Shown piece by piece: positions 2,686 through 25,217 of a stretch of 34,091 bases of DNA. A program made the translations under genes and the position numbers. The stretch comes from Bacteriovoracaceae bacterium (GTDB lineage: Bacteria > Bdellovibrionota > UBA1018): positions 1 to 34,091 of the forward strand of contig CANMSW010000001.1 in NCBI GenBank assembly GCA_947500275.1, given 5' to 3'. The notes below the pieces were generated by a model, which saw only the letters and a program-made list of their open reading frames with translations, had not been told where the DNA came from and made no database searches. How positions within the stretch are numbered: position 1 is the first letter of the stretch; each line of letters begins with the position of its first letter.

Positions 2686-3045
2686 TCACTCCCACTCCAG
2701 CGCGCCCTTCCGAAGAATGTACCAATAGCCAACAAGAAGGATCGCCGTGAAGACGACCATCTCGACCAAAATGAAAGAGTTTATAGTGAGGAACTTTCTG
2801 TAAACAACGGCCCAGGGGTAAAAGAAGAGAACCTCAACATCGAAAAGAAGAAAAAGGATCGCGACCAAATAGAACCGCACCGAGAATCTCTGGCGCGCGT
2901 CTCCGAGCGGAGGAACCCCGCACTCGAACGGCTGATCCTTCAGCGCATGCTTAATTCGCGGCCCAAGAAGGTGTGTAATCACAAGAACCGCGGCAGCGAC
3001 TAACACGCCCACTGCCATTAGCATCAAGACTGGAATATAGCTCAT
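2686..3045 (-). CDS. nuoA: NADH-quinone oxidoreductase subunit A, canonical copy
   Basis: 119 aa, three TM segments. Contains PFECG and RFSVRFYLVAILFLLFDVEVLFFYPWA; the conserved Asp/Glu of the FDVE motif are present. AGGATGG RBS upstream. Confidence 0.93.
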   Translation of the reverse strand: MSYIPVLMLMAVGVLVAAAVLVITHLLGPRIKHALKDQPFECGVPPLGDARQRFSVRFYLVAILFLLFDVEVLFFYPWAVVYRKFLTINSFILVEMVVFTAILLVGYWYILRKGALEWE

Positions 3046-3237
3046 AGACTAACCATCCTCTGATGTTCGCGCCTGAAGACAACCTCAAGCTCCCTAAAAA
3101 CACACCGAGAGTGACTGAATGAAGACCCACACTCCTCAGTCGCAACGCGAACTTAAGAGCGCAAGCCTCAATCACAACCTCTCGATTAGAGCTTTCGCTC
3201 TCAAGAGTACACGAGGAGCTTAAAACATTTGTAGGCT

Positions 3238-3267
3238 TTTATAGCGATGCGGCGTGTCCTAGGCCAA
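3238..3267 (-). promoter_or_regulatory. Candidate sigma70-type promoter for the canonical nuoA-B-C-D-E... operon
   Basis: The reverse strand reads TTGGCC-18 nt-TATAAA, just downstream of the preceding terminator and about 190 nt upstream of the nuoA start. This is a by-eye consensus match only. Confidence 0.25.
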
Positions 3268-3270
3268 GTG

Positions 3271-3300
3271 AAAAACGGGGGCCTCCTCTGTCGGGCCCCC
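3271..3300 (-). terminator. Rho-independent terminator ending the 11-gene nuo-like operon
   Basis: Reverse-strand RNA is GGGGGCC-(10 nt loop)-GGCCCCC followed by GUUUUU. It starts 10 nt after the nuoN-like stop at 3310. Confidence 0.7.
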
Positions 3301-3309
3301 ATAAAAGTG

Positions 3310-4833
3310 TCAGGGAAACATCAGTCCCTGGGTTGCGCGCTCAAGGAGGCGGAAAAGTGCGTCCGAAAAAATGGCCGCCGTGATCAGAGGAAAAAGAAAG
3401 AGCCCCATGAAGAGCCGCTGCCCGCGGACCCGTGCGGGGGTGGGTAGCCAAACTCGCTCATCGACCAACGGTGATCCCGGCGCAACAGTCTGGGTTGCAA
3501 ACCCACCCATCAAACTGAAGATCAATCTTCCAGCGGCTAGGGTGTTCAGCGCTATCGCAGCGACCCCGGCCGCGGCGAGCCCGTACCACTCGTGATCCAC
3601 TGCCGATCCCAAAAGGGCAAACTTGCCGACAAAGCCTGGCATGGGGGGAAGTCCGATGAGTGCGCAGAGACAAAGCACGAGGGCGATGCTTTCCGGTACG
3701 TTCGCTTGAAACGCTCCCCGCAGCCGATTGAGCGCATCCGAGCCCAGACGATCTACAAAAATCTGGAGAACGAATAGTGCCCCCATGAGGCCAACAAGGC
3801 TTACAAAAAATGAGTAGAGAACCGCAGAGAGGCCCTCCTGATCGAGCACAAGAATTCCTAAAAGACTAAACCCCGCTTCGGTGAGCGCAAGAGTCGCGAT
3901 CATTCGGCGTCCTGAGGTCTGCCCCAGTGCGAGCACGGGGCCAATCAAGAGACTAAACGCCACCAGCACGGCCATCGGTCCTGTCCAGTCGAACTGTCCA
4001 AGGATGGTCCAATGCCGAGCTGGGCCAGCCGAATCCATTTCAACGGTACCGAAAACCTGGGTTAATACGCGTATCCATGCGACCAATCCGCCTGCACGCG
4101 TCGCTACGGAAATGAAAGATGAAGAGGGAGTAGGAGGCCCCTCAAGCGCATCGGCAAACCAAGTATGAAATGGAAATGCGGCTACATAGAAGGACAAGCC
4201 CATCAGCAAAAAAAGCCAGACCATCGCACCCGCCTGAATACTCAAGGGCGCAGCCACCAGGGCTGCGTGAATCTGGTCCAGGCGCGTCGAATGGGTTGCG
4301 CTAAAAAGAAGAGCGATTCCAAATAGCAAGAAAGTTCCAGACACTACCGATAGGACCAGGTACTTCACGGCTGCCTCTGTTGACCGCACTGATCCCGTTC
4401 CGAAGGCCGCCAAGAAGCCACAAGAAACACTCAGAAGCTGCAAGCAGGCCCAAATCAGAAAGAGGTCTGAAGCCGATGAAAGGACTGTCAGCGCCAGTGC
4501 CCCGCCCAAGACAAGAATCTGGAATTCAGGGCGCCGATGTTGAGCAATTTCGTCAGAAAGCTGGGCGGAACCGACCGCGTAGAGTGCCAGCACTATAGCC
4601 AAGACCTTAAAAAAGACTGCGACACCATCTACTTTTACGCTGCCCTGAAACCCCGCAGATATGCCGAAGCGGGCGATAAGAAACACCTGAAGAAGTGCTC
4701 CCACTAGGCCAAAAACAATCGTCAACCAACCGACCCTGATTCGCTCGCCCCGATAGCCGAGCTCCCCCAAGACGGCGCCTACCATCGTGATCAAAATGAA
4801 TACTTCCGGTAATAAAATCAGAAAATCATTCAT
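3310..4833 (-). CDS. nuoN: NuoN-like antiporter-type subunit of the divergent 11-gene complex I-like operon
   Basis: 507 aa polytopic protein. Contains STEAAVKYLVLSVVSGTFLLFG, AFPFHTWFADALEGPPTPSS and GLPPMPGFVGKFALL (ND2/NuoN pattern). It is the last gene of the operon. Confidence 0.85.
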   Translation of the reverse strand: MNDFLILLPEVFILITMVGAVLGELGYRGERIRVGWLTIVFGLVGALLQVFLIARFGISAGFQGSVKVDGVAVFFKVLAIVLALYAVGSAQLSDEIAQHRRPEFQILVLGGALALTVLSSASDLFLIWACLQLLSVSCGFLAAFGTGSVRSTEAAVKYLVLSVVSGTFLLFGIALLFSATHSTRLDQIHAALVAAPLSIQAGAMVWLFLLMGLSFYVAAFPFHTWFADALEGPPTPSSSFISVATRAGGLVAWIRVLTQVFGTVEMDSAGPARHWTILGQFDWTGPMAVLVAFSLLIGPVLALGQTSGRRMIATLALTEAGFSLLGILVLDQEGLSAVLYSFFVSLVGLMGALFVLQIFVDRLGSDALNRLRGAFQANVPESIALVLCLCALIGLPPMPGFVGKFALLGSAVDHEWYGLAAAGVAAIALNTLAAGRLIFSLMGGFATQTVAPGSPLVDERVWLPTPARVRGQRLFMGLFLFPLITAAIFSDALFRLLERATQGLMFP

Positions 4834-4842
4834 AGCTCAGCC

Positions 4843-6429
4843 TCAATTAAACGAAGAAAGCATCGCCAAAACGGTCGGTCTGACTAAATCGAGTAAGGGC
4901 TTCGGATAAACACCAAAGCCGACGAGTGCGATGACAACCGGAATCAAATAAAGCTTCTCCCGGGGACGAAGGTCTTCAAATGCGGCCGTGAGGGCTGTCG
5001 TTTGTCCCAAGAATACACGCCGGTACATGTTGAGGATCGTATAGGTCCCTAGAAGAAGCGCACCCCCAGCCGCAATCACGACGAATGGATGGAAAGAATA
5101 GCCACCAATCACGAGAAGCGCATGAGAGACAAAACCACCCACGCCCGGAACCCCTAAGATTGAGGCCGAAGCGATCGCTGCCACCAATGCTGCCCCCGGT
5201 GCTCCTAGGGCAACTCCACCTAATGTAGAATCTTTCGACTCCGTATCGGCCGTAAAGAGCTCACTTCGGGTTCTCTCTGATATTACTCCAACCAAAAGAC
5301 CAAGGGCGGCCAGCGCCAAGCCCACCACGAGTTGCTGATAAACGGCGCCCACGAAGCCTGCCTGGCTAAGCGAGCCCACGCCCATCAACAAAAGGCCCAG
5401 TTCCCCGAGCGCAACAAACGCGAGCAGCGATCGAAGGCCTCTTTGTGCAACTGCGCACACACCACCGACCAACAAATTAACAACCCCGACCACAACGACT
5501 GCTGAGGCCACCTTGCCCAAGGTTTCTGGAAATAACTGAGTCGAGAGCCGCATAAAAATAGAAGGAGCAACGGCGAGCACAGTAACCACCGATGCGACCA
5601 AAACAGTGGCCGGCGCCTCTACGGCAACCTTAGTGAACCATCCATGAAAGGGCCATATCGGAGCGCGTAATATAAGTCCGCTGGTCATCAGAAAAAACGC
5701 TAAATCAGAAGTGCTCACATTGTAGCCAAGAATCTCAAACCCGGCACCACGGATCCCCCCCTGAGCGAGCAAACGAAGCGAGAACGTGTTCGGTTCAGCT
5801 GAATAATAGACAACGAGAAGCGCGCCGAAAAAAAGCGCGTTTCCAAGGGCAGCCGTAACGATACTCCTAAAGGCGGCTGACTCCCGATCTGCGCCACCCC
5901 AAATCCCGATAAGAAAATAGAAGGGCAGAGCGGACATCGACCAAAAAAAGAAAAGAAGAAACAGATCTTGGGCGCAAACGGCACCAAGCAAGGATGCCTG
6001 TAAAATGAGGAGGAGTCCGTGAATTCCGCGCCTTCCAGCGCCTCGGGTCCATTCGGCAGCGATCAAGAGCGGAAAAACCAGAGAAATCAGAATCACGACA
6101 GGGGCGCTCAGACCATCTAGCCCAAGTTCATAACTAATCGCATAGGAACCAATCCAGGGTAAAGACTCGACAATCTGGGGTTCGGCAACCTTAGGATGCA
6201 TCGACGCCACAAGGACTACACCGCAGATTGCGCTCGCTAAACTTGCACTCAGGGCGGCCCAACTCGCTGACCCCTCTCCTAATCGACTTGGCTTAGCAGA
6301 AACATCAGCGCTGGGGCTGTTCGTCTCTCCATCTCGACTCGAGGCGGGAACTTGGCCTCCAATCACGGTCTGAAGAATAGCGCCCAAAACGGGCGTTGCG
6401 AGCATAAATGTGATGAGATGCTGAACCAA
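4843..6429 (-). CDS. nuoM: NuoM-like antiporter-type subunit (divergent)
   Basis: 528 aa. Contains LGLDGLSAPVVIL, FFFWSMSALPFYFLIGIWGG and WPFHGWFTKVAVEAPAT (ND4/NuoM pattern). TTG start preceded by GGAGGTG. Confidence 0.85.
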   Translation of the reverse strand: MVQHLITFMLATPVLGAILQTVIGGQVPASSRDGETNSPSADVSAKPSRLGEGSASWAALSASLASAICGVVLVASMHPKVAEPQIVESLPWIGSYAISYELGLDGLSAPVVILISLVFPLLIAAEWTRGAGRRGIHGLLLILQASLLGAVCAQDLFLLFFFWSMSALPFYFLIGIWGGADRESAAFRSIVTAALGNALFFGALLVVYYSAEPNTFSLRLLAQGGIRGAGFEILGYNVSTSDLAFFLMTSGLILRAPIWPFHGWFTKVAVEAPATVLVASVVTVLAVAPSIFMRLSTQLFPETLGKVASAVVVVGVVNLLVGGVCAVAQRGLRSLLAFVALGELGLLLMGVGSLSQAGFVGAVYQQLVVGLALAALGLLVGVISERTRSELFTADTESKDSTLGGVALGAPGAALVAAIASASILGVPGVGGFVSHALLVIGGYSFHPFVVIAAGGALLLGTYTILNMYRRVFLGQTTALTAAFEDLRPREKLYLIPVVIALVGFGVYPKPLLDLVRPTVLAMLSSFN

Positions 6430-6481
6430 GGACCACCTCCACGACTAAAGGCACTCAGGCCTCCAGTTCAGGGCATAAGAG

Positions 6482-8425
6482 CTATTGTTGACTTACCAAG
6501 AAATGTATCAGCAGAGATATTCCTGCGCCAATTGCGAACGTCACGTACCATTGAAGATTCCCAGTGTGAGCAGACTGTACTGCCCCCGTAGCAGCGGTCG
6601 ATAGCGCGTAAGCAACTCGTGCGATCAGATTACTCAACGCACGATCTACCTTCCCAAAAGCGCGCCCAGCAGACTGCACACCGCGGTTTAAAACATAAGG
6701 CGCCCAAGTGTTTGAAAACTTTTCATCAATCCAGGTTTGCAGGTGCCGTCCTACAAACCTAAATGCGTCGGCGAGACCCGCGAATGCTCTCTCCGTTCCG
6801 TACCCGCCCGAGACAAAGGCCGAGAGCCGTGGCGCGTAGGCCACAAACTTGCGAAACGGGCCAATACCTGATGCCCCATTCCACCAAGCGATCAAGATGG
6901 AGGTCAACAAAAGCGCGAAGTGTACACCTATGACGAGAGTGTTGACGCTGTCGCCGCGACCGTTAGGGGAAATCCGCTCGAGCACCGAGCCCAGCACTCG
7001 GTCAGAGAAAATACTTGCGTCAAGACCGGTGAGTGTTCCGTTCCAAAAAACCCCAAACCCAACGAAAATTACTAAAACAGGAATTGATAACCAGCGCCCC
7101 TGAATAAAACTTTTTTCGCTCTCATGCTTAAAGGCGGTTCCCAGTTGCCAGGCTACCCGAGCGCCACATGCGGAAACGAGAAAGCTGCACAAAAGAACGA
7201 CCGCCGCGCGAGCGGGCGACTGTTGCATAGATTCAGCATAAAGGGCCACAAACCCTCCTGCGGAAGCAAAAAGAAGTCCGCCGGCCGAAGAAAACGCCCC
7301 AAGCAGAGCCACCGAAAGTAACCAATTCGAACCATTTTTAGTGCTTTTCGATGACTTTTCGATCGCGCAGTCCACCTTTTTTGCAGCGCCGTCGGCCAAG
7401 AGGGCCCACCCTAAACTTACGGTCACCGCAGTCAAACAGATTGGAACTGCTACATGGGCGCCGACAAAACCCAAAGATGCAAAGGATACCATTCCAATGG
7501 CTGAGAGCCAGAGAGACGCCGCGTTCATCCAGTTGTTTTGAAAGAAACTTGAAGTGGCCGCTAGAATCGCTGCCAAAGAGCCAATCCAACCCAAGGCTGT
7601 CTCTAGTCCTGCAGCGCGGATGAGCGACTCGTTCCTGATGAGCGCTCCCAGTGAAACCCAAAGCGGTGCAGCCTGTGCTATATAAATCCGCGTTAGCGGT
7701 CCCGAGGGGGCATGCCGAGTGAGTCGACCCAAGAGCGGGAACGGTTGAGCAAAAACGAAGATTCCCGCGAGCAACAGAATAGGACCTAAACCTTTGGCTG
7801 CGACGGCCGGAGTCAGGCTTTGAATGTGCGTGATTGCGCCTGCGCCCAGTACTGCAAGCAGAATCGCGCTAATTCTCTCAATACCAAATGACATCATGAA
7901 TTCAGCGCCTTCAGGGTCCCGCCAGTGACCACCAAGTGCTATGACTCCACCGAGTGCAGCAAAGACCATCCCTAAAAAGGATGCCCACGGCGTGATTCCC
8001 GACCATGCTAGGACCGAACCCATGAGTGAAAAGCCTATTGCTGATGCAAACCTTCCTACCCCAGTCCACCTCTGCCTTGCCCAAACGTAGACCTGTAGTA
8101 GGACTGCAAGCGTAGCCGCTGCAATTCCCGACGACACCCCAAGGACGTCGACACTCATTCCAAACCGAATCGCAAGACCCTGTCTTCGAGGTAAGATCCA
8201 TCCCGATATCCAGTCAAAAGAGGATTGATCCTCGAGACTGAGATCATAGCCCAACCAACCCAAAAGGACGAGCAGCCCTACGCTGGCAATTAGGACCGGC
8301 ACACTCGCTAGTGTCGGGATTCTTCTTCCGAAGAAAAACGCGAGCAGGCTTGCGAAACCCAAAAAGAGTATTCCGAGAGCGAGCGGTTCGGGAGAATGCA
8401 GGAGTGGACTAAGATCACTTTTCAT
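6482..8425 (-). CDS. nuoL: NuoL-like antiporter-type subunit (highly divergent) with C-terminal lateral-helix region
   Basis: 647 aa. Contains RWTGVGRFASAIGF (compare WEGVGLCSYLLIGF) and AQPFPLLGRL (compare AQxPLHxWL). A long amphipathic C-terminal stretch ends in SAHTGNLQWYVTFAIGAG, which resembles the NuoL HL helix and last TM. It lies between nuoK-like and nuoM-like. Confidence 0.75.
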   Translation of the reverse strand: MKSDLSPLLHSPEPLALGILFLGFASLLAFFFGRRIPTLASVPVLIASVGLLVLLGWLGYDLSLEDQSSFDWISGWILPRRQGLAIRFGMSVDVLGVSSGIAAATLAVLLQVYVWARQRWTGVGRFASAIGFSLMGSVLAWSGITPWASFLGMVFAALGGVIALGGHWRDPEGAEFMMSFGIERISAILLAVLGAGAITHIQSLTPAVAAKGLGPILLLAGIFVFAQPFPLLGRLTRHAPSGPLTRIYIAQAAPLWVSLGALIRNESLIRAAGLETALGWIGSLAAILAATSSFFQNNWMNAASLWLSAIGMVSFASLGFVGAHVAVPICLTAVTVSLGWALLADGAAKKVDCAIEKSSKSTKNGSNWLLSVALLGAFSSAGGLLFASAGGFVALYAESMQQSPARAAVVLLCSFLVSACGARVAWQLGTAFKHESEKSFIQGRWLSIPVLVIFVGFGVFWNGTLTGLDASIFSDRVLGSVLERISPNGRGDSVNTLVIGVHFALLLTSILIAWWNGASGIGPFRKFVAYAPRLSAFVSGGYGTERAFAGLADAFRFVGRHLQTWIDEKFSNTWAPYVLNRGVQSAGRAFGKVDRALSNLIARVAYALSTAATGAVQSAHTGNLQWYVTFAIGAGISLLIHFLVSQQ

Positions 8426-8432
8426 AGGCGCT

Positions 8433-8732
8433 CTAGTTTTTCAGGTTTTCAATTTCACTTAAATCTACATTGCCGCGCAGATAAAAGAGCCGCGTGGAAA
8501 GCCCAAGTCCGATTCCAAATTGCGCTAAACCGGCTAATAAAATCACTACTGCGTAGGCCTCTCCTGATGAGACAGGGAAGCTGTCAGAGCCAATACCGGA
8601 AACCAAAAAGGCTAATGCGGCAGACAGACTGAGAAGCTGTATTCCTACCAGAAGCCTCAGTACGCCTGCGCGAAGCAGAACGCAAAGGAGTCCCGAGACA
8701 GCGAGCATCGCTACAGGCATATAATAAATCAT
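8433..8732 (-). CDS. nuoK: NuoK-like subunit (divergent)
   Basis: 99 aa, three TM segments. It aligns along its whole length with E. coli NuoK (LLVGIQLLSLSAALAFLVSG / VVILLAGLAQFGIGLGL). ATGA overlap with the upstream nuoJ-like gene. Confidence 0.85.
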   Translation of the reverse strand: MIYYMPVAMLAVSGLLCVLLRAGVLRLLVGIQLLSLSAALAFLVSGIGSDSFPVSSGEAYAVVILLAGLAQFGIGLGLSTRLFYLRGNVDLSEIENLKN

Positions 8733-9301
8733 GATTCCGACACCCCACCCTGAGCGGCGGCCCGTTTAAGAACCCTGGGTCTCGATATTGCTCCAACGCC
8801 AACTATAGTGAGAAAGGTGCCTACCCCCACCATGAGAAGCGCAAGCATTGGTCCGTTTGCTAGCGCCTCACCTAAGCGTGCTACGGCAGACGCACCCGAC
8901 TTACCGAGGGTGCCCTCCGCTCCATGTTTCTGTAAGCCCAGGCCGTTCACACCTAGCAAGAAAGTCCAACCCAGGGCGACGCTCACCAAGAGGCCACCCA
9001 CCGGGAGAAACGCTGCCAACTTCCCCCTCGGATGGGCAGCCCGTGCCCGTCGCGAGGACGCGCCCTCCGATGGGTCCAGGATTTCCCCAAAGGTCGAACC
9101 ATAGGCCAAAAAAGCGACAGTACTTGAAGATCCCAACACCCAAACGAGGAGTGTTATAAACTCAGCTCCGAAGTGGAGAGCAATACATCCGAAGAGGAGG
9201 TTCACACACCACAGCGCAAGCACGGCACTCGTAAAACTTCTCCCAAGCGCTGCGAACATGCTTGCGACTCCCAGTAAAGCCGAGAGCACCCAAATCATCA
9301 T
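8729..9301 (-). CDS. nuoJ: NuoJ-like subunit (divergent)
   Basis: 190 aa membrane protein. Contains HFGAEFITLLVWVLG (compare GAxFLAxxQxxVYxGA) and a C-terminal GPMLALLMVGVG. Position between nuoI-like and nuoK-like, with ATGA overlaps on both sides. Confidence 0.7.
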   Translation of the reverse strand: MMIWVLSALLGVASMFAALGRSFTSAVLALWCVNLLFGCIALHFGAEFITLLVWVLGSSSTVAFLAYGSTFGEILDPSEGASSRRARAAHPRGKLAAFLPVGGLLVSVALGWTFLLGVNGLGLQKHGAEGTLGKSGASAVARLGEALANGPMLALLMVGVGTFLTIVGVGAISRPRVLKRAAAQGGVSES

Positions 9302-9948
9302 AATTCTCCCTTTATTTTTTGGCTCTCGGTAGAAGACCCCTGTTCACTTCTATCTGAAAGTTCAGAAAGAGAGAAAACCGGAGCACCCTGAGTATCGCGC
9401 TGTACCTTCTCCCACCGACTCTTCTGCTCGGCTGTGATTCTGCCGCGACCAAAACTGGCCGACATATCGGCGAGATCATAGACAGCCCGCTCATAGGCTT
9501 TAGTGTGGACGAGTGAAGTCGGAATACAAGACTCCACACAGAGTCCGCAGAAGGTGCAACTTGAGAAATCAATATCGAAAACTGATACCCAAGCCTTCTG
9601 GGAGTCCGGGACTTGAACTGTTTCCACCGTGATACATTTCACGGGGCAAACTTTCTCGCAGTCTCTGCACCCCGTGCACCGCTCAATATCATTAAAGAGT
9701 AAACCACGAACCCTTGCCGGAAGATCGTTCTCGGTCCGTGATGAAATGGGATCTGGATATTGCTCAGTCACTTCTTTTCGGAGGTCCGCAGCATTCCCCC
9801 CGCGCAAGTAAGGGAGCGACGCGCGAAGTGCGTTCGAAAGGCTCGCAAGAGCGTCGCGCAAAGATTTGAATGAAGCGATCAAATCTTGTGTCAACCCACT
9901 GGAAAAAGACGGAGCAACAAGGTCTCTCTCTTCACCGCTCATACTCAT
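9298..9948 (-). CDS. nuoI: NuoI-like 2x[4Fe-4S] ferredoxin subunit (divergent, with N- and C-terminal extensions)
   Basis: Contains CTGCRDCEKVCP and CTFCGLCVESCIP. I chose the start at MSMSGEE (ATG at 9948) because it forms an ATGA overlap with the nuoH-like stop and has GGAGGA upstream. The ORF track extends to 10023. Confidence 0.85.
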   Translation of the reverse strand: MSMSGEERDLVAPSFSSGLTQDLIASFKSLRDALASLSNALRASLPYLRGGNAADLRKEVTEQYPDPISSRTENDLPARVRGLLFNDIERCTGCRDCEKVCPVKCITVETVQVPDSQKAWVSVFDIDFSSCTFCGLCVESCIPTSLVHTKAYERAVYDLADMSASFGRGRITAEQKSRWEKVQRDTQGAPVFSLSELSDRSEQGSSTESQKIKGEL

Positions 9949-10982
9949 GGAGAAATTCCTCCTGCCTTCAAAAGGGCGGAACCCATCAGACAAACGAGAG
10001 AGATCGGGCCGAGTGCGCGCCAAGAGAAATCAGCAACTTGATCAAACCGAATTCTCGGCATCACACGCCCAACTACGCCCAAAACCATCATGAGTGACAG
10101 CGTTTTAAGACCTACGAGGAAAACTTGAATCGCCTGATATGCAAAGGTATTTGCGGCGCCCTCACCTAGAACAGCCACTAAAACAGAGCTTAAGAACCCA
10201 GGAAGCGCCCAGCCACCCATGAATAGCCCTACCGTAAGAACACACCAAACAAGCACACCGTAAAACTTGATGATCACGGACAAAGAGGAGCGCCTCCCCG
10301 AGAACAGTGTGCCAAGTCCACCTCGAAGATCAGGGCCAGACGCCGTGCTATCAAAAGGGGGTAACGAGAGGATTACCATTCCTGATGCTAGAAAAATAAG
10401 AAATGAAACAAACAGAAATGGCTCCCTGAACATTAGCCAAGTACCCATGCTTGAGTCATGCGGGCTTAAAAGGTTCGACCACTGAAACCCTCCGGCGGAG
10501 AGTCCCACCGATATTAGCGAAATCATCGCTGGCAGAAAGCCTGATATCGCTTGAAATGCCGAGCGAAGCCCGGCAAGCCAACCTGTAAACTCGCGACTGT
10601 TCACACCCAGGAGGAGGCTACAAACAGAAACCATCAAGATGCACCAGAGTGGCAGGAGAATCGATAATCCTGTAATCGTCATGAGGAGATGCGGTGCAAT
10701 CGGTACTGTTACCATTGCCGCGTGGAGTGCGGCTAACTGCAGGGCCGGCCACAGGGCTAGCTGCGGGGTTTTGAGTTCCGGCGAAACCTTCTGAAGTAAT
10801 TTCAGCTGATCGGCAATCCCCTGAAACAAGCCGAGGGGTCCCACGCGATTCGGGCCAACTCGGGCCTGAAGATCGGCTCCAATTTTTCTCTCGAAGTATG
10901 AGTGCAGAAACCCAACCGGGAGCACAAAACCCAGTTGAAGAATCAAGAGCGACGAGAAGACTTTTGAAAGTGTTTCAATCAT
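9945..10982 (-). CDS. nuoH: NuoH-like subunit (divergent)
   Basis: Contains FERKIGADLQARVGPNRVGPLGLFQGIADQLKLL, the hallmark ND1/NuoH N-terminal motif. I chose the start at MIETLSK (ATG at 10982, GAGAGG RBS, 13 nt after the nuoD-like stop). The ORF track extends to 11057, inside nuoD2. Confidence 0.88.
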   Translation of the reverse strand: MIETLSKVFSSLLILQLGFVLPVGFLHSYFERKIGADLQARVGPNRVGPLGLFQGIADQLKLLQKVSPELKTPQLALWPALQLAALHAAMVTVPIAPHLLMTITGLSILLPLWCILMVSVCSLLLGVNSREFTGWLAGLRSAFQAISGFLPAMISLISVGLSAGGFQWSNLLSPHDSSMGTWLMFREPFLFVSFLIFLASGMVILSLPPFDSTASGPDLRGGLGTLFSGRRSSLSVIIKFYGVLVWCVLTVGLFMGGWALPGFLSSVLVAVLGEGAANTFAYQAIQVFLVGLKTLSLMMVLGVVGRVMPRIRFDQVADFSWRALGPISLVCLMGSALLKAGGISP

Positions 10983-10995
10983 TCTAGCCTCTCGA

Positions 10996-12138
10996 TCATC
11001 GGTCGATTTCCGCCAAGTTGAGGTCAAGGCTCGCCAGGACCAATGGAATATCCTCAAGTTGGCAGCCAGGTATGATCTCGGGTAACAGATCCAGCGGCGC
11101 CCGAGACGGCACTCTAAAGTGGACTCGTGATGGCCGCTCGCCTCCGGCGGATAAGACGTGACAGGTCAGTAAGCCCCGGGAGCTTTCCACTCGGGAGAAC
11201 CCTTCTCCGATCGGAATCTTAAATTTCTCATCTGCCTTCAAGCCGAGGGCGCTTCCGGTCGGCATGATTTCTGAGCACTGGCGTATAATATCCATCGATT
11301 GAACAATCTCTCGAATGCGAATCATGTATCGCCCATGACAATCGCCTTCGCGCTCTTCTCCCATCACCACATCAAAATCTAACTTCGAATAGGCAGCATG
11401 GGGCGCCCATCGTCGCGTATCCATGGCAATCCCGCTTGCTCGGGCATTTGGCCCCGAAAGACCAACCCTCTTGGCCGCTTCAGGAGTGATGTTTGCGGTT
11501 GCTCGTGCTCGACCTAAGAATGCCTGATTGTAGCTAAAAAGGTCGTTGTACTCTTTAAACCGGTGGCGCATGACGGCGCAAACTTCAAGCACCCGCTCTA
11601 AAAAGCCGTCGGTCACATCGTGGACTACGCCACCCATCCGGAGGAAATTAAGAGAAAACCGTGCACCTGTGAGTAGCTCGAAAAGATCGACAAACTTTTC
11701 CCGATCTCGCTGGACGTAGTGGAAAAGAGTTTCTGCTCCTACAGTGCGCGCTAAGCGCGCTACAAAGCCCAGATGCGATACCACCCGTGAAAGCTCAGCT
11801 GCTAGCGTTCTTACAAACAGGGCTCTTTCGGAAACCTCGATGCCCGCGAGATCTTCGACTGCCTGACAATAGGCGAGCTCCCCAAAAATGGCCCCCTCTG
11901 GGTCAAGGCGGTCAGATATCAGCACTCCGGCTGTCCAGCCCTCAGATTCAAATACTTTTTCAAGCCCTCGATGGGCAAATCCTGTTTCGGTTCTTGCGGA
12001 AACGACCAGCTCTCCATCGAGTACAAGCTTAAGCTGCATCAAGCCTGGCAAGCCTGGGTGATACGGGCCCATCACCCAGTTGGTCGAATCCGTCTGGAGA
12101 ACTTCCGTTTGAAAAGGCGCAGGGGCCATCGTCATCAT
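10996..12138 (-). CDS. nuoD: NuoD-like 49 kDa subunit, divergent paralogue
   Basis: 380 aa. Contains MGPYHPGLPGLMQLKLVLDGE, TGFAHRGLEKVFE, LTGARFSLNFLRMGGV and the C-terminal LDLNLAEIDR. Confidence 0.88.
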   Translation of the reverse strand: MMTMAPAPFQTEVLQTDSTNWVMGPYHPGLPGLMQLKLVLDGELVVSARTETGFAHRGLEKVFESEGWTAGVLISDRLDPEGAIFGELAYCQAVEDLAGIEVSERALFVRTLAAELSRVVSHLGFVARLARTVGAETLFHYVQRDREKFVDLFELLTGARFSLNFLRMGGVVHDVTDGFLERVLEVCAVMRHRFKEYNDLFSYNQAFLGRARATANITPEAAKRVGLSGPNARASGIAMDTRRWAPHAAYSKLDFDVVMGEEREGDCHGRYMIRIREIVQSMDIIRQCSEIMPTGSALGLKADEKFKIPIGEGFSRVESSRGLLTCHVLSAGGERPSRVHFRVPSRAPLDLLPEIIPGCQLEDIPLVLASLDLNLAEIDR

Positions 12139-12148
12139 TTTCTTGTCC

Positions 12149-12676
12149 TCACTGCTGCTCGGCCTTTTCGGTCGAAGAACCCAGTCGCCTCATGGGGAAG
12201 CCAAAATGATCGTGATCATGATCATGATCGAGTGAAAAGTCAGATCCAAAGTCTGGCCGATTTAAAAACTGGATCCCGAATAAAACTTCTATTTCCAGCT
12301 CGGAGCCGATCGCCGCAGGCCAGAACTGAGCGAGGGAAGGGAGCTCCGTGAGCTCGCCTGTGCCAGTGACCGGCAATACGACTCTCAACCAAAGACTTCG
12401 GCCAAACTGGCTCGTATCAGTCCACTTTGCGGTGACAAGAAGCCCACCTTGAAACTCCATCGCAAAAAGGTCTTCAAAAAATGAAAGACCTAGCTCATTC
12501 GATGACCGACGAAGCTGACTCAGCGCTTCTGAAAATGACTCTCTGCTCACAAAAATCTGAATCGCCCGGTTAGACCCGGTCGCTTCAAATTGGCTAACAT
12601 CTTGGATCGCTAAACCCTTAAAGACTTCGCGTACCCGCGCCGACCAAACTTCATGGGAAGATTTAGGATTCGCCAC
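12149..12676 (-). CDS. nuoC: NuoC-like 30 kDa subunit, divergent paralogue with (HD)4 tract
   Basis: 175 aa, lying between nuoB-like and nuoD-like. There is weak similarity to the NuoC core (compare GSELEIEVLFGIQFLNRPD with AEREVWDMFGVRFEGHPD). The call rests mainly on position. Confidence 0.65.
   Translation of the reverse strand: MANPKSSHEVWSARVREVFKGLAIQDVSQFEATGSNRAIQIFVSRESFSEALSQLRRSSNELGLSFFEDLFAMEFQGGLLVTAKWTDTSQFGRSLWLRVVLPVTGTGELTELPSLAQFWPAAIGSELEIEVLFGIQFLNRPDFGSDFSLDHDHDHDHFGFPMRRLGSSTEKAEQQ
12206..12229 (-). repeat. Hexanucleotide (GATCAT/GATCAC)x4 tract encoding DHDHDHDH in NuoC2; contains four GATC sites
   Basis: The plus strand reads atgatcgtgatcatgatcatgatc. The reverse-strand codons are GAT CAT GAT CAT GAT CAC GAT CAT. 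Confidence 0.9.
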
Positions 12677-13145
12677 GAATCTTCTCCTGAAGGGTGATCA
12701 AGCCGTTCATAATAGCCTCGGGTCTGGGTGGGCAACCAGGCACATGGACATCCACCGGAATGATCCTTCCAACCCCTGAAAGACCTGTGTAGCTCCGATC
12801 CTCTGAAAATAAGCCCCCACAGCTGGCACAACTTCCAAGCGCCATTACGTACTTCGGCGCCAACATTTTTTCGTAAATCTGAAGCAGATGGGGCGCTGAC
12901 TTACGCGTCACTACGCCGCTCACAAGGAGAAGGTCCGCCTGAGAGGGTTCAAGCTGAGGAACACACCCAAACCGCTCGAGATCGTAGCGGCTCCCCAACG
13001 TCTCCATGACCTCATCGGCACAACAACCGGACTGAACGGCGTAATACCAAAGGGACCCAGAGCGAGCCCATTTCATGGCGCTCTCGAGTTTCGACAGAAA
13101 AAAACCACTCTGATTCTCTGATGCTGAAGGTCTGCCTTTATTCAT
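12663..13145 (-). CDS. nuoB: NuoB-like 20 kDa subunit, divergent paralogue (N2 cysteines retained)
   Basis: 160 aa. Contains SGCCADEVM, GSCASCGG and PGCPPRPEAI. ATGA overlap with the nuoA-like gene. Confidence 0.9.
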   Translation of the reverse strand: MNKGRPSASENQSGFFLSKLESAMKWARSGSLWYYAVQSGCCADEVMETLGSRYDLERFGCVPQLEPSQADLLLVSGVVTRKSAPHLLQIYEKMLAPKYVMALGSCASCGGLFSEDRSYTGLSGVGRIIPVDVHVPGCPPRPEAIMNGLITLQEKIRGES

Positions 13146-13651
13146 AAAGACTCCTCCCGGTGATTTTCCTTCTCGGCGCGATAGGTCCGCAACAGGAATA
13201 GGTCGCCCTTTCCTGATCCATGTAGCAATCCAAGTAAGGCGAGCAATGCGATGGACAGGAGCAGAATCAGCGTTCGCGAATTCGTGGCAGCGCCCTCTCC
13301 GACGATCCCTACGCGATAGGCGAGTGGAATTAAAACCATGACCATTCCTAGGAGCAGGTGGGCAAACAGAGTTGTGACGAAAAACCGAGAGTTAAACCTC
13401 CTGCCGAGCAAGGGACTCGTCGTTTCGTCATCTCTCAATACTGGCTGATGCCCTTGGCTTGGCTCGACATGACTGGAGCGCGCCCGATTGCTGCCGCGCC
13501 GGGGCAAGAGCATGGTCCGTGAAATGATATAGAGAACAGCAGGTACAACCAAAGACACTGCTGCAGCAACAAAGAAGGGGAGGTAAGCCTGCCAGCTTGA
13601 CGATATCCCTTCAGTCTGAAATGCCGCTAATATTCCCTGCGCTTCGCTCAT
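13142..13651 (-). CDS. nuoA: NuoA-like membrane subunit, divergent and extended paralogue
   Basis: 169 aa with about three TM segments. It is the first gene of the operon and is translationally coupled to nuoB2. RRFNSRFFVTTLFAHLL aligns with canonical RFSVRFYLVAILFLLF. It carries a long Arg/Ser/Pro-rich loop. Confidence 0.55.
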   Translation of the reverse strand: MSEAQGILAAFQTEGISSSWQAYLPFFVAAAVSLVVPAVLYIISRTMLLPRRGSNRARSSHVEPSQGHQPVLRDDETTSPLLGRRFNSRFFVTTLFAHLLLGMVMVLIPLAYRVGIVGEGAATNSRTLILLLSIALLALLGLLHGSGKGDLFLLRTYRAEKENHREESL

Positions 13652-13847
13652 GATGTGCCCGCGTGTGTTACTGCCGGCATTAGGGGCCGGACTCGTGGCA
13701 TTGCCGGTGCCAGCTCGGTTTTATCGGGCGTCGGTTTAGTCACGAAATTTATTCGTAAATCCGAATTCCAGTTCGAACGAAAAAACTACTGAATGGAAAA
13801 AGGGGTGTCAAGGCAATGGGGGAGCAAGTTATCCTGAGGCCTGAGCC

Positions 13848-16800
13848 ATGAGCGCTACAGCAACAGTCCAAAATCCCTTCGCCCAGTTTATGGCGGCTTG
13901 CCACGCAAGCTTGGAGAGCAGCTTGAGTGGGCGCGCAGGCGCCGGGATCTCGGGGGCTACAGGCATAGCTCGAGCGCTTGTCCTTGCTCGGCTGTTAAGG
14001 TCCGCGAATCAAAAGACCGAGAGCTTCAGGCCCGCGCAGTGGGTCTGTATCTGCCCAAACGACGAGACACTCCAGGATCTGCACAAAGACCTGATCGAGC
14101 TGATCTCAGCTTTTTTTGAACAAAAGGACGCGCCTCGTGTTCTCGCCTTTCCAGATTGGGACGCAAACCCCTACACGACAGCGTCGCCCTCGATTCGTGT
14201 TCGACATGCTCGATTGGCCGCTTTGGCCGCCCTGCTCACCCCAGGGCCTCCGCTTGTCCTTTTGACGACGCCTGAGTCTTTCATCCGGGGCACGATTCCG
14301 TTGCAAGAGTTCAAGTCGCGGGCGATCCACCTGAAGGTGGGGCAGGAGGCTTCAGATCGAGACGAACTTCTCGCGTCCCTCTTCGCCTGCGGATACCTTC
14401 AGTCGGACCCAGTCGAAGATCCTGGTACTTTTGCGTTTCGCGGTGAAATCCTCGACATCTTTCCCCCAGGAAGACTGCGCCCCTTTCGCGTAGAGTTTTT
14501 TGATAACGAAGTTGAACGGATTCGTGAGTTTGACCCCCAAACGCAGAGGACTGAGGGCGGCAAGAGCGAAAGCCTGCGCGGTCTTTCCGAGATCATTCTC
14601 TACCCAGCACGTGAAGTCATTCTCGATGAAAACACGGTTCCTGCTCTTCGTGAAAACTTAAAAGCCCATGCCGACGATCTCGAGATTCCTCGCTCCGTTC
14701 GTGATCCGATTATGGCAGGGATCAGCCCGGCCCTTAACCCGGACCACGCCGACGCCTGGGTCCCTTTCTGCTGGAACAAGACTGAGAGCCTTTTCAATCA
14801 TCTTCAGGGGAATACGCACTTCACAGTCGTTGAACCCGAGGCCTGTATCGAATCCCTTCAAGCCACACGCGCTAGTTATGAAAGCGCATGCAGTCGCGCC
14901 CCCCTTCAAGGTCTAATCCTCCCTCCGCTCGAGAAGCTTTATGCCTTCGAGCCAGATCAGATGGCCCTCCTATCCAAGCGGGCAAACCTTAGCTTGAGAG
15001 GCGCTTCAACCGGGCAGCGATCCGACTCATCTTTTGACCTGGCAGGAGAAACTCCTTTAGTGGTCGCAAACCGACTCAAGGCCGAGGGATCCTCCTCGAG
15101 TAAAAATCTGGTCCGGCATCTCTTAGAGCTCGGCCACAAAGTATATCTTTTCTCACGTGCTGGAACTTCGATCGATCGTCTTGAAAAATATTTGCGTGAC
15201 GGCGAGGCACCCTTTCGCCACGTCTCGAATCCGTTTGATGGCTTACTTGAGGGGGCGGACTCTGGGTCCGGAGTTGCAGAAATTTTCAAGGGCAAGATAA
15301 CTTCCGGTTTTGTATGGAGCGCCGCCAAGGTTGCTATTCTTAGGGACTCCGACGCAACCGGAGCATCTGAAGTCAGCAGAAAGACGCGGGCGGCGCGAGG
15401 CCGAAAGAAAACTCCAGAAGAAGGCGGCCTCAGTGGCGCTAAGAACTGGTCCGAAATCCAGGCGCTAGCAGATCTTTCGACCAACGACGCCGTTGTTCAC
15501 GCAGACCATGGAGTCGGGAGATATCGCGGCCTAACTCGTCTTGCGCTCAACGGCGCACCGAGTGACTTCCTCCAAATCGAATACGAGGCGGGCGATAAAC
15601 TTTATGTTCCGGTCTGGAGGCTCAACGTCATCCAAAAGTACGCCGGCACAGGTGAGTCGGCCCCGTTAGATCGTTTAGGGTCCCAGAACTTTCTGCGCCA
15701 AAAGGATCGCGCGCGAGAATCCGCACAGGCTCTGGCAGTCGACCTCGTACGCCTTTATGCCGAGCGAACTTTGAGGCCGGGTATAGCTTTCGCGCCCCCA
15801 GACGATTCCTTCGAACGCTTTGAACTCGAGTTTCCATTCGACGAGACTCCCGACCAGATGAAGGCTATCGAGGCTGTTCTTGATGACCTTCAAAGCGGCC
15901 GCCCTATGGACCGCCTTGTCTGTGGCGACGTCGGGTATGGAAAAACCGAAGTGGCCATCCGTGCAGCGTTTCATGCGGTAGCGAACGGAAAACAAGTCGG
16001 GGTCTTAGTGCCCACCACACTTCTGGCGACGCAGCATGAGAGCACTTTCAAATCACGACTCAGTGCGAGTGCTATTCATGTCGAGAGCATTACTCGTTTC
16101 AAATCGAGAACTGATCAAAAACGAGTTTTAGAGGAAACCGCCGCCGGAAAGATCGACGTCCTCATTGGCACCCATCGAGTCCTGTCTAAAGACGTCCGTT
16201 TCAAGGATCTAGGACTCGTCATCATCGATGAGGAGCAGCGCTTCGGAGTAGAGCATAAAGAGCTCCTAAAAACGCTTCGGGTGAATACTCATGTCCTTAC
16301 ACTTTCGGCCACACCTATCCCTCGGACGCTTCACTTGGCCCTTTCTGGGCTCCGCGATATCAGCTTAATCAACACTCCTCCGGTCGACCGACTGCCCATT
16401 AAGACGTGGGTTTCGCGAAGAAACGACGAGATGATCGCCACTGCCATCAGAAATGAGCTTGCACGCGGCGGCCAAGTCTTTTTCCTGCATAACCGCGTTC
16501 AGACCATCAAAGAAACAACCGCCCAACTAGCAAGGACCATTCCTGAGGCCCGCTTTGGCATGGCGCACGGACAGATGAGCGAAAGGGACCTTGAGTCTGC
16601 AATGCAGTCATTCCTGAAGAAAGAAAAGGATGTCCTCGTCTGCACGGCGATCATCGAGTCGGGTTTAGATATTCCATCCGCTAATACGATTCTGGTGGAT
16701 CGTGCTGACCACTTCGGCTTGGCCCAGCTCTATCAAATTCGCGGAAGGGTCGGTCGCGGACAGGTTCGTGCGTATGCTTATTTGATGACGCCGGAAGAGG

Positions 16801-17486
16801 CCCCGATCACCGACGACGCGCGTAAACGTCTCGATGTCATTCAGCGATTTATTGAGCTCGGAAGTGGCTTCAGCATTGCTTCTCACGATCTAGAGATGAG
16901 GGGCGGAGGCGACATTCTCGGTCCCGAACAGTCGGGACATATTGCGGCAGTCGGATACGAGCTTTATATGGAGCTCCTTGACGATGAAATTCGTAAGCTT
17001 CGCACCGAGGGAACCTCCCTTAGCAGTGAAGTTTCAAGTGCTCGTGACCCGGAAATAAAGGCTCCTTACCCGGCCTTTCTGCCCGAGGGGTATGTCCCAG
17101 AAGTACACCAAAGACTTGCGCTCTATCGCAGACTTTCTTCTGCAAGAACAGAAGGAGAGCTCCGAGACCTTGAGTCGGAGATGGAAGACCGCTTTGGACC
17201 TATAGGCGCAGAGGCGAAAAACCTTCTTTGGCTCATTCGCGTAAAACTACTTTTAAAAGCCCACGCCGTCGATATTTTGACAGTCGGCGAAGGCCGCGTA
17301 GTTTTGACAGCTGGTCCGGGAAGCCACTTCGATACCGACCGCGTCGTCGCGTTGATTTCCTCGGGATCTGGTGAATATCAGCTTACTCCTGATTCGAGAC
17401 TGATTGCCCGCGCTAATACCACGACCATCCATGAACTCCATTTTGATTTAGAGCGCCTTCTGGAAAAAGTGGCGCGGCGGAATTGA
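13848..17486 (+). CDS. mfd: Transcription-repair coupling factor Mfd
   Basis: 1212 aa. Contains an RNAP-interaction region (YEAGDKLYVPVWRLNVIQKY), FPFDETPDQ, Walker A GDVGYGKTEV, DEEQRFG, LSATPIPRTL and RGRVGRG. Confidence 0.96.
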   Translation: MSATATVQNPFAQFMAACHASLESSLSGRAGAGISGATGIARALVLARLLRSANQKTESFRPAQWVCICPNDETLQDLHKDLIELISAFFEQKDAPRVLAFPDWDANPYTTASPSIRVRHARLAALAALLTPGPPLVLLTTPESFIRGTIPLQEFKSRAIHLKVGQEASDRDELLASLFACGYLQSDPVEDPGTFAFRGEILDIFPPGRLRPFRVEFFDNEVERIREFDPQTQRTEGGKSESLRGLSEIILYPAREVILDENTVPALRENLKAHADDLEIPRSVRDPIMAGISPALNPDHADAWVPFCWNKTESLFNHLQGNTHFTVVEPEACIESLQATRASYESACSRAPLQGLILPPLEKLYAFEPDQMALLSKRANLSLRGASTGQRSDSSFDLAGETPLVVANRLKAEGSSSSKNLVRHLLELGHKVYLFSRAGTSIDRLEKYLRDGEAPFRHVSNPFDGLLEGADSGSGVAEIFKGKITSGFVWSAAKVAILRDSDATGASEVSRKTRAARGRKKTPEEGGLSGAKNWSEIQALADLSTNDAVVHADHGVGRYRGLTRLALNGAPSDFLQIEYEAGDKLYVPVWRLNVIQKYAGTGESAPLDRLGSQNFLRQKDRARESAQALAVDLVRLYAERTLRPGIAFAPPDDSFERFELEFPFDETPDQMKAIEAVLDDLQSGRPMDRLVCGDVGYGKTEVAIRAAFHAVANGKQVGVLVPTTLLATQHESTFKSRLSASAIHVESITRFKSRTDQKRVLEETAAGKIDVLIGTHRVLSKDVRFKDLGLVIIDEEQRFGVEHKELLKTLRVNTHVLTLSATPIPRTLHLALSGLRDISLINTPPVDRLPIKTWVSRRNDEMIATAIRNELARGGQVFFLHNRVQTIKETTAQLARTIPEARFGMAHGQMSERDLESAMQSFLKKEKDVLVCTAIIESGLDIPSANTILVDRADHFGLAQLYQIRGRVGRGQVRAYAYLMTPEEAPITDDARKRLDVIQRFIELGSGFSIASHDLEMRGGGDILGPEQSGHIAAVGYELYMELLDDEIRKLRTEGTSLSSEVSSARDPEIKAPYPAFLPEGYVPEVHQRLALYRRLSSARTEGELRDLESEMEDRFGPIGAEAKNLLWLIRVKLLLKAHAVDILTVGEGRVVLTAGPGSHFDTDRVVALISSGSGEYQLTPDSRLIARANTTTIHELHFDLERLLEKVARRN

Positions 17487-24893: not shown

Positions 24894-25217
24894 TTAGGTG
24901 TTCGTGATTTTCAAGAATGCGATGACGAATGCCAAGAGAACAAGGGATTCGATCAGAGCGAGAGAAATGATCATTGGAGTGAAGAGTTTGTCCCCAGCTG
25001 CTGGGTTACGAGCAATCCCTTCGAGAGCTGCGGAAGCTGCTTTGCCTTGTGCCGAAGCTCCGCCGAAAACTGCCAAGCCGATTGCGATTGCAGCTGCAAT
25101 TGCACCGTAGCCGCCGCCGGTTGAAGTGGTCGCAGCAGCGACGCCTTCTTCAGCGAAAGCTACAGAGGACAGAGCTACAAAGCCCAAAACTGCCGACATC
25201 AAAATTTTACGAATCAT
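24894..25217 (-). CDS. atpE: F-type ATP synthase Fo subunit c, with N-terminal signal-like extension
   Basis: 107 aa. The core is GLAVFGGASAQGKAASAALEGIARNPAAGDKLFTPMIISLALIESLVLLAFVIAF, a helix-RNP loop-helix with the carboxylate Glu. Confidence 0.92.
   Translation of the reverse strand: MIRKILMSAVLGFVALSSVAFAEEGVAAATTSTGGGYGAIAAAIAIGLAVFGGASAQGKAASAALEGIARNPAAGDKLFTPMIISLALIESLVLLAFVIAFLKITNT

Follow-up and report, generated by a model that had tools for sequence, protein, structure and literature searches.

Gene content of the locus

The window analysed here, 34,091 nucleotides of contig CANMSW010000001.1 from a Bacteriovoracaceae bacterium (GenBank assembly GCA_947500275.1, positions 1 to 34,091), carries on its minus strand, between 13651 and 3310, a set of 11 complex I-like genes directly upstream of a canonical nuo operon. 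This set is referred to below as cluster 2 and its genes as A2 to N2, and D1 denotes the canonical NuoD of the neighbouring operon; the iron–sulphur (Fe-S) cluster that shares the name N2 is always written Fe-S cluster N2. According to the list of open reading frames (ORFs), cluster 2 consists of 11 uninterrupted minus-strand ORFs in the order A-B-C-D-H-I-J-K-L-M-N. Start/stop overlaps of the ATGA type were read in the sequence at A2/B2, H2/I2, I2/J2 and J2/K2, the remaining junctions measure −14, 10, 13, 7, 52 and 9 nt with the 52-nt gap lying before M2, and Shine–Dalgarno-like motifs are found 5′ of most starts. Because the D2 stop and the H2 start are only 13 nt apart, there is no space for nuoE, nuoF or nuoG, and none of about 30 loci examined has these three genes within cluster 2. 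Gene order, overlaps and the missing E/F/G genes were thus read correctly in the initial annotation.

Downstream of N2, a spacer of 264 nt (3046–3309, minus) is followed on the same strand by canonical nuoA (2686–3045), nuoB (2124–2639), nuoC (1488–2057) and nuoD (155–1435), all with strong Pfam matches, and by the first 35 codons of canonical nuoE (1–105, minus; translation MAKILSTKFYEQMKKLEPRYPTKVALLLPALHAAQ), which runs off the window; ORFs, Pfam matches and the translation of the nuoE start bear out the earlier proposal that a second, canonical nuoA-B-C-D-E begins after the spacer. Cluster 2 had also been described as ending in a terminator of its own at 3271–3300. A GGGGGCC...GGCCCCC hairpin followed by GUUUUU is indeed present there, on the minus strand and 3′ of N2 (−18.6 kcal/mol, with a modest z of −1.85), and may act as terminator or attenuator; it is lineage-specific, relatives having a gap of about 34 nt at this place, and it was not listed by a consensus terminator scan, whose limit is exceeded by the predicted loop. 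At its other end, cluster 2 is separated by a divergent intergenic region (13652–13847), the presumed promoter region, from mfd (13848–17486, plus). Consensus scanning returned no sigma-70-like promoter in the N2/nuoA spacer or in the A2/mfd region. Between mfd and canonical nuoA, no genes besides the 11 were present in the window or in the loci of relatives.

Subunit identities and folds

Subunits were assigned by Pfam and NCBIfam searches, and A2, J2 and L2 additionally by profile–profile comparison (hhalign) with the canonical paralogues of relatives. For B2, C2, D2, H2, I2, K2, M2 and N2, the searches returned the complex I family of the respective subunit, in each case with a score below the NCBI equivalog cut-off. 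B2 (12663–13145, 160 amino acids, aa) is a NuoB homologue with 94 bits to PF01058 and 190 bits to the NuoB subfamily, over its 116-bit cut-off. C2 (12149–12676, 175 aa) is a weak NuoC homologue (PF00329, 33 bits) that has conserved core residues in common with canonical NuoC; near its C-terminus it carries a His/Asp-rich low-complexity insert (LDHDHDHDHFG), and canonical NuoL of one relative (locus L065, 16843–18846) carries another, HDDHGHGHHDDDHGHGHGHGG, both inserts being missing or different in relatives. D2 (10996–12138, 380 aa) is a NuoD homologue of the short form, with 233 bits to PF00346 and 339 bits to the NuoD equivalog, under its cut-off of 360 bits. H2 (9945–10982, 345 aa) is a NuoH homologue (PF00146, 157 bits), and I2 (9298–9948, 216 aa) is a NuoI homologue with a conserved C-terminal extension (NuoI subfamily, 72 bits, under the 113-bit cut-off). 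K2 (8433–8732, 99 aa) is a NuoK homologue (PF00420, 36.5 bits), M2 (4843–6429, 528 aa, TTG start) is a NuoM homologue scoring 296 bits with the NDH_I_M subfamily, over its cut-off, and N2 (3310–4833, 507 aa) is an antiporter-like subunit at the NuoN position (PF00361, 125 bits).

The other three proteins gave no useful Pfam or NCBIfam match, even at E = 10. A2 (13142–13651, 169 aa), a divergent NuoA homologue, reached the NCBIfam NuoA profile at E 0.028 only and was aligned to NuoA by hhalign with 95% probability (E 2e-8); J2 (8729–9301, 190 aa), a divergent NuoJ homologue, was aligned to NuoJ with 94% probability; and L2 (6482–8425, 647 aa), a subunit of NuoL fold without recognisable antiporter signature, was aligned to NuoL over 547 columns with 92% probability (E 6e-7). 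For L2, an AlphaFold2 model based on 77 family sequences (pLDDT 89.7, pTM 0.86) has a lateral helix of 77 residues (544–620) followed by a terminal transmembrane (TM) helix (624–646), and the best 50 matches of the model in the PDB by Foldseek were all NuoL, ND5 or NdhF chains (E down to 9e-14, TM-score 0.63–0.77, 11–18% identity). The AlphaFold2 model of D2 (pLDDT 84.9) matched 49-kDa/NuoD/NdhH chains at TM-scores of 0.87–0.93. Because family matches, profile–profile comparison and structure models agree, the reading A-B-C-D-H-I-J-K-L-M-N is correct. Public annotation of these proteins is poor (window 13142–13651; P0241; P0041): the ENA call cuts A2 to 65 aa, and one L2 fragment carries the label 'predicted small secreted protein'.

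Replacement of quinone-site, E-channel and proton-relay residues

In complex I, His38 and Tyr87 of NuoD ligate and protonate the quinone head group beside Fe-S cluster N2, carboxylates of the E-channel relay the signal into the membrane arm, and a Lys/Glu/His relay in the antiporter-like subunits performs proton translocation. These positions were mapped on cluster 2, with the mapping verified on Thermus Nqo4 (2fug_4) and Paracoccus Nqo13 (8qby_M); residue counts here and below refer to 24–34 family members aligned with the canonical paralogues of the same genomes. At the quinone site, D2 has Pro31 at the position of Thermus His38 (Pro in 30/33 of the family; 2fug_4 numbering), Pro80 at that of Tyr87 (Pro in 31/34) and Thr132 at that of Asp139, where the family has Ala, Ser or Thr and which maps to the 'LLDLGA' motif in the alignment with 2fug_4. 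Both prolines are invariant in a 30-sequence D2 alignment, whereas NdhH (6hum_H) and Thermus Nqo4 retain His38 and Tyr87. The two CxxC motifs by which the large subunit of group 4 membrane-bound [NiFe] hydrogenases (Mbh/Ech/Hyf) binds NiFe are also absent from D2: DRLDPEGA stands at the position of the N-terminal motif, the C-terminus reads LDLNLAEIDR, and neither contains a Cys pair.

The changes extend through the E-channel into the membrane arm. K2 has Gln32 at the position of E. coli Glu36 (Gln in 27/28) and Gln71 at that of Glu72 (Gln in 24/28). In H2, Leu, Ile, His or Arg occupies most of the acidic positions of the TM5–6 loop and of the E-channel, and a single Glu of the loop survives as Asp. 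The PFECG loop of A2 is gone, the Asp and Glu of its TM2 are Ile/Val and Leu/Met, respectively, in the family (G102 and V104 in the window), and the TM3 Tyr of J2 has become Ser. All three coupling loops (NuoD β1–β2, NuoA TM1–2 and NuoH TM5–6) are altered.

In M2, for which the mapping was confirmed by an independent alignment to 8qby_M, the TM5 Glu is replaced by Ser164 (Ala, Gly, Ser or Thr in the family), the TM7 Lys by Arg255 (Arg in 28/28), the TM8 Lys by Ala286 in the window and by Pro in 26/28 family members, the His of the SHMG motif by Glu343 and the TM12 Glu by His436 (His in 21/28). In N2, Gln132 stands for the TM5 Glu (family Gln or Leu), Tyr216 for the TM7 Lys in the window (Gln in 22/28 of the family) and Arg246 for the TM8 Lys (Arg in 28/28). 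L2 has lost every Glu, Lys, His and Asp of the canonical relay without any consistent replacement, and D93 and R264 are its only conserved charges. Arg and Gln do not change protonation in the physiological range and hence cannot shuttle protons in this way. Every one of the replaced residues is retained by the canonical paralogues in the same genomes. The initial description of cluster 2 as a machine whose input module is not encoded at the locus, which holds for E/F/G, accordingly understated the departure, since the quinone ligands and nearly the whole relay are gone as well.

Conserved Fe-S ligands and architecture

The ligands of the Fe-S clusters are kept. The four ligands of Fe-S cluster N2 in B2 (C41, C42, C106 and C138, the tandem pair included) are conserved in 26–27 of 27 sequences, and all eight cysteines for two [4Fe-4S] clusters are present in I2 (C91, 94, 97, 101, 131, 134, 137 and 141), with a conservation of at least 85%; the eight persist even in lineages in which cluster 2 has shrunk. 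H2 retains the N-terminal ERK...GPNR and the PR.R.DQ motifs, D2 retains GF.HRG.EK and the C-terminal E.DR motif, and L2 retains QTG..Q.Y at the end of the lateral helix (QTG in 26/28). Apart from this helix, L2 conserves almost exclusively positions occupied by Gly, Trp and Pro.

Selection and rate of change

Ratios of non-synonymous to synonymous substitution rates (dN/dS) were calculated by the NG86 method for the pair of loci L074/L077, at a dS of about 0.35–0.5. Values for all 11 genes lie between 0.014 and 0.17: K2 0.014, I2 0.015, M2 0.019, H2 0.040, D2 0.041, N2 0.049, B2 0.050, L2 0.105, J2 0.13, A2 0.16 and C2 0.17, as compared with 0.045–0.099 for canonical A–D of the same pair. A second pair left the picture unchanged, with K2 ranging over 0.008–0.014. 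Neither frameshifts nor stops were found in cluster 2 across about 30 loci that span about 50% protein divergence. D2 is 48–67% identical among relatives as against 77–86% for D1, so that the rate of change of cluster 2 is about double that of the canonical one. Despite this faster evolution, cluster 2 is clearly maintained by purifying selection.

Distribution and operon structure

At 90% clustering, D2 has more than 500 relatives, of which the best 120 are 50–67% identical, the window's own sequence aside. The named sources among these 120 are metagenome-assembled genomes (MAGs) of Bdellovibrionota (Oligoflexia, Bdellovibrionales, Bdellovibrio sp. and strain FG-1). FG-1 has been assigned to UBA1018, an uncultivated GTDB class (PMC13200544); the taxonomy of the family is taken from these few source names and that publication. 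One D2 homologue occurs in a MAG labelled Methylotenera, probably on a mis-binned contig. An exhaustive phmmer search of 1.84 billion proteins with L2 returned a closed family of 155 representatives at E ≤ 1e-3 and did not reach ordinary NuoL; a word-indexed homologue search with L2 had returned only a fragment of L2. A scan of a genome collection with D2 alone, for which overly specific patterns were used, gave distant NuoD-like genes only and no close relatives. The same scan showed many four-gene clusters of NuoB-, NuoL-, NuoM- and NuoD-like genes (L010–L055, e.g. L023 and L010), in the order B-L-M-D in Acidimicrobiia and L-D-B-L/M in Rhodanobacteraceae and relatives, as well as H-D-I-B clusters in Thermococcus and Armatimonadota; these clusters probably encode group-4-hydrogenase or Ehr-type complexes.

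Contig look-ups and a metagenome scan together yielded about 30 independent loci of a single layout, with mfd divergent, followed by A2 to N2 and canonical nuoA-B-C-D, so that the tandem arrangement, for which a survey had been suggested at the outset, recurs among uncultivated Bdellovibrionota. In five of five look-ups seeded with canonical NuoD, cluster 2 lay directly upstream of a nuoA-to-nuoN operon, whose nuoN is cut by the end of the locus. Complementation, in which the canonical operon would lack H–N, was ruled out: the operon of these five relatives runs A-B-C-D-E-F-G-H-I-J-K-L-M-N, and because it reaches nuoN the two clusters are not complementary. The window itself holds canonical A–D and the start of E, and the order of F–N is taken from the five relatives. 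Canonical NuoG is short in three loci (470–477 aa; L065 12985–14418, L066 13030–14442 and L105 13033–14457), where it has the N-terminal Fe-S domains and a weak or faint match to the molybdopterin domain.

Between N2 and nuoA lie 27–40 nt in most relatives and only 6 nt in L094, the median gap being about 34 nt; the window (264 nt) and L059 (196 nt) are exceptions. Since the gap is usually so short, the two clusters are probably co-transcribed in most relatives, and the usual state is probably a single transcription unit of 25 genes comprising cluster 2 and canonical nuo. The initial annotation had proposed a standard complex I plus a separate 11-subunit machine; an extra cluster does stand beside canonical nuo, but its independence is put in doubt by the probable co-transcription.

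Relation to known systems and descent

The 11-subunit enzymes (Nuo11 of Chlorobi, Bacteroides and Desulfitobacterium, NDH-1 of cyanobacteria and plastids, and archaeal Fpo) have the same 11 subunits without NuoEFG in the same order, and they share with cluster 2 the short form of NuoD, the tandem Cys of Fe-S cluster N2, the two NuoI clusters and a NuoL with lateral helix. They differ in keeping the quinone, E-channel and relay residues, as seen in NdhH, Nqo4 and the locus L101, residues that cluster 2 has replaced with the exception of one NuoH loop Glu, present as Asp, and of the TM12 Lys of N2. The cluster 2 locus holds no donor-docking genes of NDH-1 or Fpo (NdhS/O/V, FpoF); they might be encoded at another site in the genome. 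The locus L101 (1573–9320 of metagenome contig Ga0255052_10004479) carries an ordinary complex I-like cluster of 11 genes, ordered A-B-C-D-H-I-J-K-L-M..., that retains His38, Tyr87, Asp139, both NuoK Glu, the ECG loop and the Asp/Glu of NuoA and the NuoH loop Glu. Outside the family, no sequence found comes closer to D2 than the 380-aa D protein of L101 (38% identity, 265 bits), whereas D1 and D2 of the window share 29% identity (184 bits). A recent duplication of the canonical operon as the origin of cluster 2 was ruled out on these figures, since D2 is nearer to the unrelated L101 than to D1. From these comparisons, cluster 2 looks like a derivative of an enzyme of the 11-subunit type that was rewritten once and then conserved.

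With the canonical 14-subunit complex (Nuo14) of the neighbouring operon, cluster 2 is homologous subunit for subunit, shares its architecture, lies adjacent to it and is probably co-transcribed with it. Between the two copies of the same genome, identities amount to 29% for D, 28% for M, 25% for H and 43–46% for B, and J, K and L give no BLAST match; cluster 2 differs from Nuo14 in having no N-module, in the replaced catalytic and coupling residues and in its roughly twofold faster evolution. Two papers mention that nuo clusters are split or multiple in cultured Bdellovibrio-like organisms (PMC4758237, PMC13147790).

The nearest known concept is that of the Ehr (energy-converting-hydrogenase-related) complexes. 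These membrane complexes reportedly have a NuoD-like subunit without the NiFe cysteines and the quinone-binding residues, and their substrate is said to be unknown; their clusters are described as small sets related to group-4 hydrogenases, without NuoA or NuoJ and without complex I gene order. By this definition, D2 resembles them in lacking both NiFe and quinone ligands, and cluster 2 differs in being a full A–N complex I set with A and J present and with D placed beside complex I sequences. MBS/Mbx and Mbh of Thermococcales (6u8y, 6cfw) are complex I relatives in which the site used by the NuoD homologue is not one for quinone. Their D subunit, likewise of the short form, can be aligned with D2 over the full length, but they score below NdhH and have no NuoA-J-K-L-M-N arrangement. 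Their membrane modules are of Mrp type, with the ionisable residues intact. Among solved structures, the best-scoring relatives of D2 are NdhH (225 bits) and Nqo4, ahead of MBS and Mbh (193 and 150 bits, respectively). Identity with a NiFe hydrogenase or with MBS was ruled out, as D2 has no CxxC pairs and scores lower with these proteins than with NdhH.

In a rough neighbour-joining tree, D2 forms a long branch of its own outside the clade of Nqo4, NdhH, L101, betaproteobacterial NuoD and Bdellovibrionota D1, next to NuoD of quinone-reducing complex I and apart from the sampled group-4-type sequences; this placement may reflect long-branch effects and serves for coarse orientation only, and bootstrap values are unreliable, clades having been compared on arbitrarily rooted trees. 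No prior description of cluster 2 turned up in full-text literature searches. The earlier statement that it matches none of the known 11-subunit enzymes agrees with the retention, in NDH-1, Nqo4 and L101, of residues lost here; no characterised clade was found to share the substitutions, and canonical H–N are present in the relatives. Judged by sequence, cluster 2 is a member of the complex I family by descent and architecture, and by its residues it falls outside complex I and the known 11-subunit enzymes in function.

Interpretation

On balance, cluster 2 probably encodes an assembled complex I derivative that performs neither canonical quinone reduction nor proton pumping and that acts as an electron carrier without energy conservation or as a partner of complex I. 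Its product would be a complete, assembled, L-shaped complex I-like membrane complex, descended from an 11-subunit complex I without NuoEFG and retaining a wire of three Fe-S clusters, N6a and N6b in NuoI and N2 in NuoB, together with the NuoL lateral helix. Quinone reduction at the canonical site and canonical redox-driven proton pumping would be unavailable to such a complex because of Pro/Pro in D2, Gln/Gln in K2, Arg/Gln/Pro in M2 and N2 and the non-polar L2. Strong selection on the 12 cluster cysteines, on the folds and on the lateral helix suggests that the complex is assembled, that it carries a stub of Fe-S clusters and that its membrane arm is passive, most likely an anchor conserved for its shape. 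The complex might pass electrons, without conserving energy, from a soluble donor or a shared NuoEFG to an acceptor other than canonically bound quinone, or it might be a structural or regulatory partner of complex I; roles of these two kinds appear likeliest because cluster 2 normally seems to lie on the same transcript as complex I.

More tentatively, cluster 2 may be described as a charge-neutralised complex I, still L-shaped and with a live Fe-S wire, that has taken on a new job, either a new redox reaction in the NuoB/D/H pocket with rewired coupling or a pseudo-complex that modulates complex I; we regard this as a serious proposal that falls a little short of probable. If true, this would be the first case in nature in which all of the coupling machinery of a complete complex I has been rewritten and the machine kept. 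Coupling in complex I is debated residue by residue, and point mutants target the positions that are changed in cluster 2, among them NuoK Glu36 and Glu72, the Lys and Glu of NuoM, NuoN and NuoL and NuoD His38 and Tyr87. Cluster 2 would amount to a natural experiment in which nearly all debated positions are neutralised jointly and then conserved (Glu→Gln, Lys→Arg/Gln and His/Tyr→Pro). Long and strong selection on 11 subunits, Fe-S ligands and lateral helix suggests that complex I architecture is selectable beyond quinone-coupled pumping, candidate functions being non-conserving electron transfer, new chemistry and structural or regulatory partnership. For comparative structural and biophysical work, the family offers a 'dead pump' scaffold that already exists. 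Because its genes are annotated automatically as NADH-quinone oxidoreductase subunits or hypothetical proteins, the proton-pumping capacity of MAGs may be over-counted.

Several observations weigh against the assembled, non-pumping complex preferred here. Conservation of the Fe-S ligands could be purely structural, and all family members found come from MAGs or metagenomes. In the window, the hairpin and the 264-nt spacer part the two clusters, and co-transcription may therefore fail there. Shrunken versions of cluster 2 occur in some lineages (L066 1–8378; L105 1–8262; the contig of P0161), with D2 of 311–351 aa, H2 of 259–325 aa, L2 of 487–544 aa and M2 of 394–467 aa without Pfam match; on one such contig, A2 and C2 are uncalled and B2 has only 122 aa. 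The eight NuoI cysteines and the Pro at the His38 position are still present in L066 and L105. Canonical D1 of L066 is 82% identical to that of the window, as against only 35% for D2, and cluster 2 therefore evolves much faster in that lineage; the shrunken versions hint that cluster 2 is dispensable or changing where they occur. Charges were also gained. Family-specific invariant ones are E10, E24, E30 and R33 in N2, E126, E183 and K510 in M2, R24, E47 and E73 in J2, R81 in K2 and D37 in H2; the TM12 Lys of N2, Lys404, is retained (Lys in 23/28), and both M2 and N2 have Glu at the SHMG position. Together these make a rewired ion path possible.

Among the alternatives, a strict pseudo-enzyme has to be taken most seriously, although we consider it unlikely. 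It would transfer no electrons at all and serve as a structural or assembly partner of complex I, for instance as scaffold or in organising supercomplexes or the membrane, its Fe-S clusters being kept for folding only; it overlaps the partner branch of the reading preferred above, and our judgement of it applies to the strict version without electron transfer. That the canonical input module is missing, and the canonical output site with it, would be expected of such a protein, as would the very tight junction with the canonical operon in most relatives, the restriction of L2 to Gly, Trp and Pro positions and the lateral helix, and the fixation of Pro at former ligand positions. It accounts less well for the conservation of all 12 cluster cysteines even where other subunits shrink and for the very strong constraint on K2, I2 and M2 (dN/dS 0.008–0.02), and the many newly fixed charges suggest more than scaffolding; physical association with complex I is itself a supposition.

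Somewhat more doubtful still is a rewired energy converter, in which redox chemistry would take place in a remodelled NuoB/D/H pocket, on a substrate that is not quinone or that binds in another way, and would drive ion translocation through a new charge network. The invariant charges gained in N2, M2, J2, K2 and H2, the retained TM12 Lys of N2 and the new Glu at the SHMG position of M2 and N2 all speak for it, as does the fixation of Arg or Gln, instead of random residues, at the replaced positions. MBS/Mbx provides a precedent for a new catalytic site in a NuoD homologue. Against this, L2 has no conserved polar axis, D93 and R264 being its only conserved charged positions, Arg and Gln cannot shuttle protons through a change of protonation, and all three coupling loops, in NuoD, NuoA and NuoH, are altered.

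An ordinary second isozyme, that is, a pumping ferredoxin- or other-donor:quinone oxidoreductase of the 11-subunit type (NDH-1, Fpo, Nuo11) as implied by the initial annotation, is very unlikely. The 11 subunits in exact order without E/F/G, the intact Fe-S ligands, NdhH and Nqo4 as the closest solved NuoD relatives and the greater nearness of D2 to L101 than to D1 fit it well, but His38, Tyr87 and Asp139, the NuoK Glu pair, most NuoH, NuoA and NuoJ acids and the TM5, TM7 and TM8 residues of M, N and L are replaced, hallmarks that L101, NdhH and Nqo4 keep, and L2, J2 and A2 no longer match their own Pfam families. Least credible is a decaying relic of an ancestral 11-subunit enzyme made redundant by the 14-subunit complex I, for which the faster evolution, the shrunken variants and the lost catalytic residues might be cited, but which is largely refuted by the selection test, with dN/dS in all 11 genes like that of canonical genes, by the lack of frameshifts and stops, by the invariance of the derived residues themselves and by the preserved ATGA overlaps and Shine–Dalgarno-like motifs.

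Neighbouring genes

Beyond mfd, Pfam searches identified two SurA-like genes, pdxA and a phosphoglucomutase gene. A membrane-sector set of the F-type ATPase lies on the minus strand at 24894–27521 and consists of atpE (subunit c), atpB (subunit a), an ORF of 135 aa without Pfam match and an AtpI-like gene; a gene resembling tetratricopeptide repeat lipoproteins stands immediately upstream on the same strand, and the other atp genes are not adjacent. The region 27593–34064 (minus) holds gyrB, fabH and gyrA in this order, with a C-terminal fragment of recF upstream; the longest fabH ORF starts at TTG and shares 41 nt with the end of gyrB. Across 31–34 kb of the window, G+C content drops from about 0.52 to 0.44.

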